A DNA stretch of 3,518 bases from a virus (Duplodnaviria > Heunggongvirae > Uroviricota > Caudoviricetes): positions 1 through 3,518 of the IMG/VR virus record IMGVR_UViG_2585427758_000017, one strand, 5' to 3'. The notes below the pieces were generated by a model. The model saw only the letters and a list, made by a program, of their open reading frames with translations, was not told the DNA's origin and ran no database searches. Position 1 is the first letter of the stretch, and every line of letters begins with the position of its first letter. The translations under genes and the position numbers were made by a program. Below are positions 1-3,518 of the stretch, piece by piece.

Positions 1-408
1 ATGATCACTATTACCAAAGGGCGACTGCTGACAATCAAGCAGTGGCGCGAAACATACGGACCGGGTAGCAACGTTGTACTGCCAGCAGAAGAAGCGGAAG
101 AACTGGCACGAATTGCACTGGTATCGCTGGAAGCAGAGCCGGTGGCAAAGATTATAGCTCATTACCCATTAGGAGTTGACGTAGGCAAACAAAAGTTCGT
201 ACAGGCCATTGGAGAGCTTCCTGACTTTGGCGGATATCTATTTGCCGCCCCTCCAGCGCCGATAGTGCCGGAAGAAGCAACTCCGGAAAACGTAGAAATG
301 CTCTCTGGCTATGTTTCCACGTACAAATTAACCGATAGCGAGCGCGATATTGCTGCCGAAATATGGAACGCCTGCCGCGCCGCTATGCTTCATGGGAAAG
401 GAGAGTGA
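1..408 (+). CDS. Hypothetical prophage accessory protein (135 aa), short paralogue of the 684..1427 gene
   Basis: ORF begins with ATG at base 1 and ends TGA 406..408. N-terminus MITITK matches MTTITK of the 684 gene, and both share an ELARIAL-SLEA-PV motif and a C-terminal module (PAPxVPEEATPENVEMLSGYVSTYKLTDSERDIAAEIWNACRAAML). No upstream sequence is available, so no RBS can be seen. Family not identified. Confidence 0.6.
   Translation: MITITKGRLLTIKQWRETYGPGSNVVLPAEEAEELARIALVSLEAEPVAKIIAHYPLGVDVGKQKFVQAIGELPDFGGYLFAAPPAPIVPEEATPENVEMLSGYVSTYKLTDSERDIAAEIWNACRAAMLHGKGE
247..392 (+). repeat. Copy A of a ~146-bp near-identical direct repeat (4 mismatches; 121-bp perfect core 263..383)
   Basis: Manual alignment at an offset of 671 bp: 247..392 against 918..1063. 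Mismatches are at 252, 262, 384 and 393. It encodes the shared C-terminal module of the two paralogues. Confidence 0.9.
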
Positions 409-409
409 T

Positions 410-673
410 ATGGCAACTTTAACAAAAAAAGAACGGGCATGGTTGAACGAATTACAGGACGTTCTTGATCGCTGCCCATCACCGAAAAAAATTGGTTTTT
501 ACACCATTGGCGATAAAAGCATTTACCTGTATGACCTGCGCCGCATGGATGAAATCATGGAGGCTCTTGATAATCGTTCGTCGATGGATTGGTGTGTTGC
601 TGTTCATGATATGAATGCAGGGTTTGATGAAAAGATTTTGTTCCCCTCATCAGTTGAAAGCACTGCGGGTTAA
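410..673 (+). CDS. Hypothetical small protein (87 aa, MATLTKKERAWLNELQDVLDRC...)
   Basis: ATG at 410 is preceded by an AAAGGAGAG Shine-Dalgarno (397..405) and lies 1 nt after the upstream stop (TGA-T-ATG). The ORF-track start at 350 has no RBS and overlaps the upstream gene, so 410 is preferred. Stop TAA 671..673. No recognisable family. Confidence 0.6.
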   Translation: MATLTKKERAWLNELQDVLDRCPSPKKIGFYTIGDKSIYLYDLRRMDEIMEALDNRSSMDWCVAVHDMNAGFDEKILFPSSVESTAG

Positions 674-677
674 GGAG
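672..677 (+). promoter_or_regulatory. Shine-Dalgarno AAGGAG for the 684..1427 CDS
   Basis: AAGGAG overlapping the upstream TAA stop, 6 nt before ATG 684. Confidence 0.7.
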
Positions 678-683
678 TAACAC

Positions 684-1427
684 ATGACCACTATTACCAA
701 AGAACGTATTGAATTGTTCATTAAAAATCCGCTTGAAAACGGGCTTACCCGTGGTGAACAAATGGAACTGGCACGGATTGCGCTGGCATCGCTGGAAGCA
801 GATCCAGTTAAACGAGTTAACTCAGATCAGATGCGCCGAGTCTGCTTAGAAGCTAATCGCCATTTAGATAAATATGACGCGATGGCGAAAGAGGTAAATA
901 AGTTGCTTGGACGCATCGCCCCGCCAGCGCCGGTAGTGCCGGAAGAAGCAACTCCGGAAAACGTAGAAATGCTCTCTGGCTATGTTTCCACGTACAAATT
1001 AACCGATAGCGAGCGCGATATTGCTGCCGAAATATGGAACGCCTGCCGCGCCGCCATGCTTCAGTCCGGAAACTTTCGGGAAAACAAGAATTCGTCAACC
1101 AATAATTTTCGGGAAATCGCGGAAACGTCAACCAACTATCCGGCAATTCCTAGTGAGGTGTTGTCCGCAATCCTGAAGGTTGCCAGGATTCGTGCCGATT
1201 TCGATGATTTTGACGGTGACAGGCGAGGTATCGGTGATTGTCTGGATGAGGCTGAGCAAGAGCTTATCGTTACCATTAACAAATATGCCAGTCAGTTGGC
1301 AGCAGAACCTATAGCGCCTAATGACGTTCGAGAGCAGACAGCCATTCCACAAGTTCCGGTAACTCCGGATGGTTGGATAAGCTGTAGTGAGCGAATGCCG
1401 GACGACAGGCAGGAGGTGAATCAATGA
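684..1427 (+). CDS. Hypothetical modular prophage protein (247 aa): N-terminal module paralogous to the 1..408 gene, internal tandem repeat linker, C-terminal region ending in a DUF551-like WIS..R.P motif
   Basis: ATG 684 is preceded by an AAGGAG Shine-Dalgarno (672..677) with a 6-nt spacer. It shares the 146-bp near-identical segment with the first gene. The C-terminal residues WISCSERMPDD resemble, from memory, the start of DUF551 found in lambdoid accessory proteins; this is not verified. Confidence 0.7.
   Translation: MTTITKERIELFIKNPLENGLTRGEQMELARIALASLEADPVKRVNSDQMRRVCLEANRHLDKYDAMAKEVNKLLGRIAPPAPVVPEEATPENVEMLSGYVSTYKLTDSERDIAAEIWNACRAAMLQSGNFRENKNSSTNNFREIAETSTNYPAIPSEVLSAILKVARIRADFDDFDGDRRGIGDCLDEAEQELIVTINKYASQLAAEPIAPNDVREQTAIPQVPVTPDGWISCSERMPDDRQEVNQ
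918..1063 (+). repeat. Copy B of the ~146-bp near-identical direct repeat (perfect core 934..1054)
   Basis: Same alignment as copy A. Flanking sequence diverges immediately on both sides. Confidence 0.9.
1071..1136 (+). repeat. In-frame tandem duplication, 2 x 33 bp (25/33 identical), encoding NFRENKNSSTN / NFREIAETSTN
   Basis: 1071..1103 aligns to 1104..1136 with conserved TTTCGGGAAA and CGTCAACCAA cores. It starts 8 bp after the end of the 146-bp repeat, inside the 684..1427 CDS. Confidence 0.8.
1411..1416 (+). promoter_or_regulatory. Shine-Dalgarno AGGAGG for the candidate micropeptide
   Basis: Exact AGGAGG, 7 nt upstream of ATG 1424. It lies inside the 3' end of the upstream CDS. Confidence 0.5.
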
Positions 1428-1507
1428 GCTGGCCTGATGCAATCGTAACTCTGGGGGTGGTATTCGCAGCAGCGTTTGTTGTGTTCTCGATTTGTCGATG
1501 GGGATAA
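1424..1507 (+). CDS. Candidate 27-aa hydrophobic micropeptide (MSWPDAIVTLGVVFAAAFVVFSICRWG), putative single-pass membrane peptide
   Basis: ATG 1424 is preceded by a perfect AGGAGG (1411..1416) with a 7-nt spacer, the strongest SD in the window. The start overlaps the upstream stop as ATGA. It has a 17-residue uninterrupted hydrophobic core followed by CRWG, and its TAA stop (1505..1507) sits 4 nt before the next ATG. It is absent from the ORF track only because of its length. Confidence 0.35.
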   Translation: MSWPDAIVTLGVVFAAAFVVFSICRWG

Positions 1508-1511
1508 CCAC

Positions 1512-1754
1512 ATGTTCGCTTTGATTCAACGCGGTCAGATATACACGGACAGAGCCGGATACCCCGTGGTGATTACTCGCATCACTGAGCACTCAGTGTT
1601 CTTTCGACGGATGGACGGACGATCCGGGCGGGTACGCATTGGTGAGTTAAACTGCCTGTTCGAACATATTGACCACCAGGAGTACCGCAAAATTCTCGCG
1701 GACACTGAGCAGGAAAAGCACCTGAAAAAATTACGAGCCATAAAAAGGAAGTAA
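1512..1754 (+). CDS. Small hypothetical prophage protein (80 aa, MFALIQRGQIYTDRAGYPVVITRITEHSVFFRRMDGRSGRVRIGELN...)
   Basis: The ORF-track entry 1476..1754 starts at a TTG with no RBS. The in-frame ATG at 1512 follows a GGGGA purine tract (1499..1503) and directly follows the micropeptide stop, so it is preferred. Resembles small proteins commonly found just upstream of xis in enterobacterial prophages (possibly DUF4222-type, unverified). Confidence 0.6.
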   Translation: MFALIQRGQIYTDRAGYPVVITRITEHSVFFRRMDGRSGRVRIGELNCLFEHIDHQEYRKILADTEQEKHLKKLRAIKRK

Positions 1755-1757
1755 AGA

Positions 1758-1904
1758 ATGAATAAAGCATTTGAACGATGGGTCCACCAGCGTTACGGCA
1801 ATCGCTATGACCTGACGCGAGATGTTGACGGCTTCTACTGTCGTGAAGTTGTGAAGCGAATGTTTGAAGTGTGTTGCCACTGCCGTGGGCTGAGTGTTGT
1901 GTGA
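1758..1904 (+). CDS. Small Cys-rich hypothetical protein (48 aa, MNKAFERWVHQRYGNRYDLTRDVDGFYCREVVKRMFEVCCHCRGLSVV)
   Basis: ATG 1758 is preceded by an AAGGAAG Shine-Dalgarno (1745..1751) with a 6-nt spacer and lies 3 nt after the upstream stop. Its TGA stop (1902..1904) overlaps the xis SD. It carries a C28-x10-C39-C40-H41-C42 cluster. It is below the ORF-track length threshold. Confidence 0.45.
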   Translation: MNKAFERWVHQRYGNRYDLTRDVDGFYCREVVKRMFEVCCHCRGLSVV

Positions 1905-1912
1905 GGTAATAC

Positions 1913-2149
1913 ATGGGCAATGTGATTCAACTGGCTCCCAATGAATGGGTTTGTGAAAGCGTTCTTATCGCAATTACCGGGCTCAAACCAGGCACAATTC
2001 TTCGGGCCCGGAAAGAATGCTGGATGGTTGGAAGAGAGTATATTCACGTATCACCAGACGGTAATCCAAAGCCTTCCAGTGAATGTATGTATAACAGAAA
2101 AGCAATAGATGCCTGGGTCGCCTCAATGAAAAACAAACAACCCAGGTGA
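1913..2149 (+). CDS. xis: Excisionase / recombination directionality factor (78 aa)
   Basis: Small basic protein immediately upstream of and co-oriented with the integrase. The sequence MGNVIQLAPNEWVCESVLIAITGLKPGTILRARKECWMVGREYIHVSPDGNPKPSS matches, from memory, the excisionase-like family of E. coli Rac/e14-type prophages. GAGGT SD 1903..1907. Confidence 0.8.
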   Translation: MGNVIQLAPNEWVCESVLIAITGLKPGTILRARKECWMVGREYIHVSPDGNPKPSSECMYNRKAIDAWVASMKNKQPR

Positions 2150-2194
2150 TTTAATATCATGAAATATGTAAGCTCGTATCGCTCTTGGGCGTCT

Positions 2195-2199
2195 GGAGG
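2195..2199 (+). promoter_or_regulatory. Shine-Dalgarno GGAGG for int
   Basis: GGAGG 5 nt upstream of ATG 2205. Confidence 0.7.
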
Positions 2200-2204
2200 T
2201 ATCG

Positions 2205-3518
2205 ATGGATAAAGTCAAATATCCAACAGGCGTCGAAAACCACGGCGGCACATTACGCATCTGGTTTAATTTTAAAGGTAAACGTGTCAGGGAAAATCTT
2301 GGTGTCCCTGACACTGCCAAGAACAGGAAGATCGCCGGGGAACTGCGGACATCAGTATGTTTTGCCATCCGCACAGGAAGCTTTGATTATGCTGCACAGT
2401 TCCCTGACTCCCCCAACCTTCAGGCTTTTGGGGTAAGTAAAAAAGAAATTACGGTGAAGGAACTTGAAGAAAAGTGGCTGGATCTGAAACGAATGGAAAT
2501 CTCTGCAAATGCATTCAATCGCTATGAATCCGTTGCAAGAACGATGGTTCCGAAAATTGGAGGCAGTAGACTGGTGTCATCGGTAACCAAAGAGGAATTG
2601 CTGTATATCAGGAAAGATTTGCTTACCGGGTATCAGAATTCAACGAAAAACAAAGCAGCAGCAAAAGGACGGAGCGTCGTTACTGTAAATTATTACATGA
2701 CGACAATCGCTGGAATGTTTCAGTTTGCTGCAGATCACGGTTACTTAGAAGCAAATCCCTTCCAGGGAATTAAGCCTCTTAAAAGAGCCAGGGCAGAGCC
2801 AGATCCGCTAACTCGTGACGAATTTATTCGCCTGATAGATGCTTGCCGACATCAGCAGACGAAAAACCTGTGGTCATTGGCTGTGTACACAGGAATGCGT
2901 CACGGTGAACTGGTCTCCCTGGCCTGGGAAGATATCGATCTGAAGGCAGGAACAATTACCATCAGGCGCAATTATACGAAACTTGGTGAGTTCACTCTAC
3001 CGAAAACTGAAGCAAGCACAAACAGGGTTGTGCACCTTATCCAGCCCGCTATCAGTGTCCTGAAAAATCAGGCTGAAATGACAAGACTGGGTAAGCAGTA
3101 CAACATCAAGGTGCAACTACGTGAATATGGACGTTCAGTGAACCATGAATGTACTTTCGTGTTTAACCCTCAAGTGGTTAGAAAAAGCGAACAGGTAGGT
3201 TTTGTCTACAAAGTCGATTCTGTAGGTGACTCATGGGAAACAGCCATTAAGCGTGCAGGGATCAGGCATCGAAAGGCATACCAGTCACGACACACTTATG
3301 CGTGCTGGTCATTATCTGCCGGAGCAAACCCAAGCTTCATTGCCAGCCAGATGGGCCATGCAAGTGCCCAGATGGTATTCAATGTATACGGAGCATGGAT
3401 GACTGACAGCAATGCAGAACAGATCGCAATGCTGAATCAGAAGCTGACAGATTATGTCCCAATGATGCCCCATAGTCACCAAAGTGACACCAGAGGCTTA
3501 TTAAAATCAGTAAGTTAA
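2205..3518 (+). CDS. int: Tyrosine recombinase, lambdoid phage integrase with N-terminal arm-binding domain (437 aa)
   Basis: GGAGG SD 2195..2199 with a 5-nt spacer. The N-terminus (HGGTLRIWFNFKGKRVRENLG) is arm-binding-like. Catalytic residues can be placed: Arg I R232 (2898..2900, TGMRHGE), Lys K267 (3003..3005, LPKTEA), Arg II R362 (3288..3290, SRHTYACW), His H385 (MGHAS) and nucleophile Tyr Y395 (3387..3389, NVYGAW). Resembles Rac IntR-type integrases from memory. Confidence 0.95.
   Translation: MDKVKYPTGVENHGGTLRIWFNFKGKRVRENLGVPDTAKNRKIAGELRTSVCFAIRTGSFDYAAQFPDSPNLQAFGVSKKEITVKELEEKWLDLKRMEISANAFNRYESVARTMVPKIGGSRLVSSVTKEELLYIRKDLLTGYQNSTKNKAAAKGRSVVTVNYYMTTIAGMFQFAADHGYLEANPFQGIKPLKRARAEPDPLTRDEFIRLIDACRHQQTKNLWSLAVYTGMRHGELVSLAWEDIDLKAGTITIRRNYTKLGEFTLPKTEASTNRVVHLIQPAISVLKNQAEMTRLGKQYNIKVQLREYGRSVNHECTFVFNPQVVRKSEQVGFVYKVDSVGDSWETAIKRAGIRHRKAYQSRHTYACWSLSAGANPSFIASQMGHASAQMVFNVYGAWMTDSNAEQIAMLNQKLTDYVPMMPHSHQSDTRGLLKSVS

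Follow-up and report, generated by a model that had tools for sequence, protein, structure and literature searches.

The repeat and its host gene

The DNA analysed here is a stretch of 3,518 nucleotides (hereafter, the window) that covers positions 1 to 3,518 of the Caudoviricetes record IMGVR_UViG_2585427758_000017 and represents the integrase end of a lambdoid (phiP27-like) prophage. According to the listing of open reading frames (ORFs) and database names, its plus strand carries a gene of the Eaa/DUF551 family at 684–1427, which encodes 247 amino acids and belongs to the early-left operon upstream of xis and int. Near-identical proteins are named "Eaa protein" or "DUF551 domain-containing protein" in databases. 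Within this gene lies the element examined in this study, a 66-bp tandem repeat (hereafter, the cassette) composed of two 33-bp units, both in frame with ORF 684–1427 and together encoding residues 130–151. Unit 1 (type A, AACTTTCGGGAAAACAAGAATTCGTCAACCAAT, translated as NFRENKNSSTN) occupies positions 1071–1103 of the plus strand and encodes residues 130–140, and unit 2 (type B, AATTTTCGGGAAATCGCGGAAACGTCAACCAAC, translated as NFREIAETSTN) follows at 1104–1136 on the same strand and encodes residues 141–151. The units are identical at 25 of 33 nucleotides (76%) and 7 of 11 amino acids, and share two cores, TTTCGGGAAA (1074–1083 and 1107–1116) and CGTCAACCAA (1093–1102 and 1126–1135). The two types can be written as NFRE-xxx-SSTN (A) and NFRE-xx-E-x-STN (B).

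When tandems of every period from 12 to 60 were scanned for without bias, the top one in the window had a period of 33 and lay at position 1070 (25 matches, log p −18.7); none of 300 shuffles equalled it (best shuffle, log p −14.4). Likewise, the core pattern occurs twice in the window and in none of 200 dinucleotide-preserving shuffles. These two shuffle tests exclude a chance origin of the repeat. A repeat search of the window recovered the unit pair at 78% identity and a spacing of 33, whereas Tandem Repeats Finder, run with a minimum score of 30, did not list it because there are only two diverged copies. The initial annotation had described an in-frame 33-bp duplication with these same units, positions and cores, and both the sequence and the shuffles agree with it. 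The 66 bp are best read as an old in-frame tandem duplication that has since become fixed as a two-unit cassette.

The cassette separates two modules of the protein. Upstream, the C-terminal part of the first module (917–1063, plus strand) is 98% identical to positions 246–392 of the paralogous ORF 1–408, and its end at 1063 places the start of the repeat 8 bp beyond the shared module, as had been noted before. A semi-conserved lead-in to the repeat, WNACRAAMLQSG (1035–1070, plus strand, residues 118–129), forms the 5′ shoulder of a homology island described below; the 3′ shoulder is a trailing linker, YPAIP (1137–1151, plus strand), with the consensus (S/Y)P(V/A)(I/T)P and a predicted coil conformation. 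The downstream module (1152–1304, plus strand, residues 157–207, ..VLSAILKVARIRADFDDFDGDRRGIGDCLDEAEQELIVTINKYASQLAA) is helical in the AlphaFold2 model. This part of the protein had been taken to be unique; instead, it proved to be a widely shared module, with residues 116–230 matching phrog_14306, 230 viral loci related to the downstream module, and many other N-terminal parts preceding it in relatives. Scanning genome contigs with the downstream module yielded two weak loci, in a collection that holds one genome per species and is uninformative on spread.

The structure of the 247-aa protein was predicted using AlphaFold2 with a 52-sequence alignment, which gave a mean predicted local distance difference test score (pLDDT) of 66.9 and a predicted template modelling score (pTM) of 0.26. 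In the model, a helix at residues 108–130, which ends the upstream module, is followed by a coil at 131–156 (pLDDT below 50 at 132–152), two helices at 157–175 and 183–207 (pLDDT 75–85), and a disordered tail. The low pTM is what would be expected of a beads-on-a-string protein. The repeat segment itself is 82% polar or charged and contains 6 Asn in 22 residues. A low-pLDDT coil of polar composition between helical modules points to a disordered interdomain linker, and prediction supports the repeat as a polar, intrinsically disordered tether of ~22–27 residues that would join two independently folding helical modules. The 247-aa protein partially matched 11 PHROGs, and all families returned for it by Pfam and PHROGs are of unknown function; Foldseek comparison of the model with the PDB gave nothing below E = 0.6.

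Unit number among relatives

Among close relatives the number of units is constant. Two units were found in all 120 closest proteins from a search of 5.8 billion proteins and in all 80 viral loci encoding a downstream module 96–100% identical to that of the window. For a sample selected independently of the linker, we took the 150 best representatives of 50%-identity clusters, in which 162 junctions follow the motif ..A-M-L-(Q/H). Two units were present at 38 of these junctions and one unit at ~10; a further 6 carried a zero-unit GNSPVIP linker, 10 ended in a stop codon, and 101 led into other linkers or modules. The single units are of both types: NFRENKNSSTN followed by YP or SP in five representatives (P0138, P0157, P0160, P0164 and P0238), and NFRE followed by IAETSTN in four (P0172, P0181, P0187 and P0192). 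Since A-only and B-only singles both exist, each with its own diverged middle, at least one of these types derives from the two-unit form.

Unit number also varies between identical flanks. With ..CRAAML upstream and ..(S/D)EVLSA(I/V).. downstream, there are no units in P0220, P0228 and P0250, one unit in P0138, P0157, P0160, P0164 and P0192, and two units in others. The zero- and one-unit alleles with the same flanking modules are intact genes distributed over multiple 50%-identity clusters. In Escherichia coli, two one-unit copies (L244 and L245) read AAC TTT CGG GAA followed by ATC xCG GAA ACG TCA ACC AAC, that is, the head of unit 1 joined to the tail of unit 2, which is the expected product of unequal crossover or slippage in the TTTCGGGAAA core. 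Unit-number polymorphism is thus real but rare, and the repeat does not qualify as hypervariable.

The initial annotation had proposed an Asn/Ser/Thr-rich linker whose length changes by slippage. The coil prediction, the polar composition and the occurrence of 0, 1 and 2 units bear out the linker, and slippage holds up only as a rare event; the unit count that had been suggested as a check showed no variation among the closest relatives, all with two units, and did show it among distant ones with 0 or 1. The proposed disorder check likewise gave a coil with pLDDT below 50 between two helices in the AlphaFold2 model, so that length polymorphism and a predicted unfolded segment are found at the same site.

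A synthetic five-unit bait retrieved no array of more than two units, with only 130 candidates scored, mostly fragments. The sole three-unit array that we found (L025, ~6021–6180) has the structure A+B+B, its two B units differing by 1 nt, and lies in a different module context; directly upstream, a CAG is changed to TAG and 1 nt is deleted. This premature stop and deletion suggest that L025 is probably a decaying gene or a sequencing error.

Several further observations concern the ..CRAAML junction. In representatives P0121–P0270 it is followed by other recurrent linkers, GNSPVIPDGW/GNSPVIPDEVL, G(A/S)(E/Q)PVSQTYKLxEL(A/S)GNSPV(I/T)P and GAENAES..., and the family may draw on a small repertoire of junction cassettes instead of one. 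ORF 1–408 (plus strand, 135 aa), the paralogue of the 247-aa gene, consists of the upstream module alone and stops 5 codons past the ..CRAAML junction (HGKGE*). The protein terminates in the same way at 10 of the 162 AAML-type junctions of the diverse representatives, which indicates that the upstream module can stand alone. For the downstream side, the annotated start of P0274 and P0282 is the Met of the AAMLQ motif (MLQAGNFRE..); P0282 is 101 aa long, has 49 member sequences and carries no partial flag. Either the downstream module is sometimes expressed alone from this ATG, or gene callers restart there after an upstream disruption.

Spread across unrelated modules and proposed role in exchange

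Scanning viral contigs with the core pattern returned at least 120 matches, in which the same double unit stands between many differing upstream and downstream sequences. With module types defined at <60% amino acid identity, 151 two-unit instances comprise at least 33 upstream and at least 19 downstream types, and four four-gamete configurations across the cassette; the samples were collected by patterns derived from the cassette, and both numbers of module types are minimum values. Among the downstream partners are the ..SEVLSAI.. helical module, several DUF551 variants (..PDGWISCSERMP..), a ..ALLPGGFTIEEAKELHE.. module and zinc-ribbon-like modules (KCWCHTCRPV.. and CPKCGGRGSYHC..). The suggestion that the repeat is a scar of the recombination that joined its two neighbours reverses the logic: the cassette is a portable element that existed beforehand, and the same codons recur between at least 33 upstream and at least 19 downstream module types.

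We then examined descent with a codon-degenerate scan that accepted any codon for F-R-E ... S-S-T-N-N-F-R-E. At least 120 matches were obtained, with the consensus TTT CGG GAA..TCG TCA ACC AAY AAT TTT CGG GAA. In the matches listed, the F, E, S-S and T codons are uniform except for one TCT, and the other synonymous variants are CGG replaced by AGG once and by CGT five times, together with AAT/AAC at the first Asn. Such near-uniform codons demonstrate that the copies are identical by descent at the DNA level and spread by recombination, rather than being convergent peptides. Most of the variation in the cassette is non-synonymous and falls within the three residues between the cores: the middle tripeptide of unit 1 varies among relatives (NKN, SKN, NKG, NKD, KKG and others) with constant F-R-E and S-S-T-N codons, and unit 2 occurs as IAET, ISET, IPEA and KIPEA.

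The homology between contexts is confined to the cassette and its shoulders. Over 75 unique contexts, mean pairwise nucleotide identity is ~0.3 upstream of −36, 0.5–0.7 between −36 and 0 (the WNACRAAMLQSG lead-in), ~0.9 in the cassette, 0.74 falling to 0.46 over +66 to +84, and ~0.4 by +90, a profile inflated at the pattern positions by the same pattern-based sampling. The genes with the cassette, borne on prophages or plasmids, come from a very large pool in E. coli, Shigella and Salmonella. When 5426 complete E. coli genomes were searched with 126 nt centred on the cassette, 1176 of them gave matches, at 2785 places in all, of which 117 are on plasmids; the median is 2 places per genome and the maximum 8. 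When the whole gene was aligned to E. coli genomes, alignments started or stopped at window positions 1035–1048 (query 352–365) and 1133 (query 450), and these ends cluster at the edges of the homology island.

Placed between unrelated modules, the cassette provides a homology island of ~66–100 bp exactly at module junctions. Homologous recombination within the island or at its edges could rejoin modules in frame, most plausibly through phage Rad52-type recombinases tolerant of short, diverged homology. The rare loss or gain of a unit bears the signature of occasional unequal crossover or slippage in the 10-nt cores. Rad52-like phage recombinases have been reported to dominate exchange on short, diverged homology (De Paepe et al, 2014, PMC3945230), and the same work describes frequent intragenic exchanges of ~100 bp and cites minimal processing segments of 23–27 nt for Red-beta and 31–34 nt for RecA. 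Both flanks are unrelated in 2169 of 2775 pairs of contexts; these pairs have a median identity of 88% over the 66 bp. The longest exact stretch that two such contexts have in common has a median length of 22 nt; it measures 23 nt or more in 46% of the pairs and 31 nt or more in 18%.

The haplotypes of the cassette carry traces of where exchanges took place. The upstream type of the window (U4) is found with three cassette haplotypes, each of them usual for its downstream partner, which places those exchanges in the WNACRAAMLQSG-NFRE shoulder. Upstream type U0, in contrast, combines a single haplotype with two downstream modules, and here the exchanges map to the 3′ shoulder. All four combinations of the unit-1 variants NKN/SKN with the unit-2 variants IAET/ISET are present, a hint of crossovers inside the element; these are single-base differences that recurrent mutation could also produce. 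We infer that the cassette may act as a preferred recombination substrate for module reassortment that preserves the reading frame. Overall, we consider it reasonably probable that the repeat is an old, fixed duplication that acts as a disordered interdomain linker and as a homology island at mosaic junctions, with rare changes in unit number.

Several observations weigh against this interpretation. Diversity at four-fold degenerate sites is ~0.03 in the cassette and ~0.02 in the adjacent downstream module; as it is not below that of its neighbour, there is no sign of special DNA-level selection. The disorder claim derives from a single AlphaFold2 model with a pTM of 0.26, the supporting viral-contig samples are pattern-ascertained with counts that are lower bounds, and a homology island marks where homology ends rather than where exchange occurred. 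Over half of the unrelated-flank pairs have no exact run reaching 23 nt. In 45 unique instances, the conditional haplotype entropy is 0.56–0.58 bits given the upstream type versus 0.91–1.27 bits given the downstream type; haplotypes thus track the upstream module, and many exchanges may lie 3′ of the cassette. These last two findings, together with a synonymous diversity equal to that of the adjacent module and the 101 of 162 family junctions that use unrelated linkers, would also suit a passive linker that belongs to one of its neighbours, in most cases the upstream module, and travels with it when illegitimate or flank-driven recombination joins modules, with selection keeping only junctions at domain boundaries and the homology of the linker itself having no causal role. 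We regard this explanation as unlikely, although it is the alternative that we take most seriously: the U4 and U0 patterns place exchanges on both sides of the cassette, four-gamete configurations occur across it, and homology ends cluster at its edges in E. coli genomes. The retention of F-R-E and S-T-N in distant variants that precede zinc-ribbon modules, e.g., DFREISNSSTNNFRENAETSTKCWC, is a further difficulty, as a purely passive tether would have no need of the constraint on the peptide at which this retention hints. It is compatible with NFRE..STN being a short linear motif with a function, for instance in docking, processing or degradation, that is doubled for avidity and serves as a constant handle, as are the persistence of F-R-E and S-(S/T)-T-N around varying residues and the strong preference for two units over one or three. 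We nevertheless consider such a motif improbable, since the low synonymous divergence means that recent common descent alone can account for the conservation, the 0- and 1-unit alleles with the same flanks make the motif dispensable or its number flexible, and no known motif or family was matched in Pfam or PHROGs.

Two direct repeats with 10-nt cores, a near-palindrome close by and almost invariant codons could in principle reflect a signal embedded in the coding DNA or its RNA, be it a structured RNA or a site bound by a regulator or a recombinase, but the codons of the neighbouring module are equally invariant and other evidence makes this reading very hard to credit. The near-palindrome CCGGAAAcTTTCGGG, which the initial annotation had put at 1065–1079, actually lies at 1066–1080 and pairs at 6 of 7 positions; it is at chance level (5 such sites in the window versus ~4.7 expected) and is present in only 33 of the 75 unique contexts. 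The motif is found alongside different integrases in prophages and also on plasmid replicons, and the suggested search for it elsewhere in the prophage did not encounter it again in 43 kb of a closely related prophage plus chromosomal flank. At the RNA level, positions 1040–1165 fold with z = +1.9, more weakly than 197 of 200 shuffles, and a search of the window against Rfam at gathering thresholds was negative. These results give no support to the DNA-binding site proposed earlier. Equally far-fetched, in our judgement, is a hypermutable contingency repeat in which frequent slippage varies the protein. Alleles with 0, 1, 2 and 3 units do exist, and one-unit alleles have the hybrid structure expected from slippage; against this, the units are only 76% identical with cores of 10 nt, all 200 close relatives have exactly two units, and none of the 130 candidates scored with the five-unit bait had more than two. 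Three other candidates were rejected. A diversity-generating retroelement, considered for the tripeptide-focused variation, would need a reverse transcriptase and a template repeat, neither of which the window contains, and a longer element; the GGGAAAA heptamer is out of the X_XXY_YYZ register of programmed frameshifting; and integrase arm-type sites do not fit an intragenic element that is separated by 1.1 kb from int, on the upstream side, and occurs with different integrases.

Prophage context and comparison with known systems

The 247-aa gene ends in a DUF551 remnant followed by a QEVNQ tail and the stop codon (1371–1427, plus strand). Residues 230–245 match Pfam PF04448 with 23.8 bits against a gathering cut-off of 22, and cover only profile positions 1–16 of 68, whereas relatives P0009, P0044 and P0139 carry a complete DUF551 domain. 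This partial presence identifies the 247-aa gene as a domain-deleted relative of the family. The start of DUF551 directly joins the usual ..QEVNQ* C-terminal tail, as though the core of the domain had been deleted internally and in frame. Since L246, L247, P0169 and P0290 have the same truncated ending, this allele circulates and is no lesion peculiar to the 247-aa gene.

The gene and its paralogue ORF 1–408, 0.7 kb apart, share three patches with unrelated sequence between them: 19 nt at the start, 44 nt (100–143 and 765–808), and 147 nt at 98% identity (246–392 and 917–1063). Recombination between these direct repeats could delete the intervening gene at 410–673, an ORF of 87 aa. Downstream of the 247-aa gene, a hydrophobic ORF of 27 aa (MSWPDAIVTLGVVFAAAFVVFSICRWG, 1424–1507) begins with an ATG that overlaps the preceding stop codon (ATGA). 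It has no match in Pfam or PHROGs and no annotation at the matching position in the related records L246 and L247, and could encode a small membrane peptide. The remainder of the window is occupied by a DUF4222 gene (1512–1754), an ORF of 48 aa (1758–1904), an excisionase gene (DUF1233, 1913–2149) and a tyrosine integrase gene (2205–3518).

In a related E. coli prophage, the same gene block lies downstream of yfdP/Q/R/S-like and ead/Ea22-like genes, and this prophage is inserted beside yecE/yecN. In the related prophage L247 (22010–24075), the integrase gene shares 19 nt at its 3′ end with the start of the host DUF72 (yecE) gene, which is consistent with integration into or next to the 5′ end of that gene. 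Comparison of the whole window with the 5,426 complete E. coli genomes found the present arrangement in none of them, and the top match reached 95% coverage in 5 pieces. The absence of the window as one block from these genomes indicates that the region reshuffles quickly.

In the modular theory of lambdoid phage evolution, the classical linkers (Susskind and Botstein, 1978; Clark et al, 2001) reportedly lie between genes. The cassette differs from them in being located inside a reading frame, in having to preserve that frame and in containing an internal tandem duplication. It resembles lambdoid linkers and the substrates of relaxed recombination (PMC3945230; Martinsohn et al, 2008, PMC2327257) in that short, partly diverged homology feeds mosaics, and its size is comparable to that of the ~100 bp exchanges described in PMC3945230. 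Mechanistically, its closest analogue is found in the conserved motifs of T-even phages. For the tail-fibre and adhesin genes of these phages, PMC3157838, with reference to Tetart et al (1998), describes exchanges within or near conserved motifs that generate chimeric adhesins. As described there, the T-even motifs (glycine-rich in gp38, conserved in gp37; Trojet et al, 2011, PMC3157838) are likewise short, intragenic and placed between variable or unrelated segments, and the outcome, in-frame shuffling of protein segments, would be the same, the role of the cassette being deduced from sequence. In that case, the T-even glycine-rich motifs form the structural core of one folded domain and the shuffled parts are host-range loops, whereas the cassette belongs to an early, non-structural protein, in which it is predicted to tether whole domains as a disordered segment.

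Ordinary flexible interdomain linkers, such as Q-linkers and the Pro/Thr-rich linkers of cellulases, drift fast and conserve their composition but not their sequence. Like them, the cassette is polar, of low complexity, predicted to be disordered, variable in length and located between autonomous domains; unlike them, it has a defined sequence of 2 × 11 residues with the same codons across dozens of unrelated contexts. Domain-level mosaicism, as described in a survey of phage proteins (Smug et al, 2023, PMC10684548), reaches an extreme in the family of the host gene. The terms "linker", "domain boundary" and "breakpoint" are absent from that survey, and "eaa" appears in reference identifiers only. 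The Ea22 paper, where it treats DUF551, calls it a portable domain of unknown function, and no description of the cassette was found in the literature that mentions DUF551 or deals with Eaa, Ea22 or mosaicism. Conserved sequences that form junctions or linkers within mosaic phage genes are a known kind of element, of which the cassette is an undescribed example.

Few phage genes are as mosaic, or as poorly understood, as the Eaa/DUF551 genes of lambdoid and phiP27-like prophages, and with so little understood of the host protein the immediate impact of the cassette is modest. If it marks, and perhaps guides, domain junctions, however, it would be a simple landmark by which annotators and structural biologists could divide these proteins at their real module boundaries. 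It would also offer a recodable substrate with which to ask whether short intragenic homology drives domain shuffling in temperate phages, an idea argued so far mostly from tail-fibre genes, and its multiple copies per genome would be potential sites of recombination between prophages. A bolder proposal, which at present seems doubtful to us, is that the cassette is a family-wide, frame-preserving recombination adaptor kept for the combinatorial exchange of early-gene domains in prophages. Were this true, the preference for two units would reflect the need for at least ~60 bp of homology together with a long enough tether, and the cassette would be a bacterial-virus counterpart of an exon-shuffling junction, present in about 1 in 5 E. 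coli genomes with up to 8 copies each.

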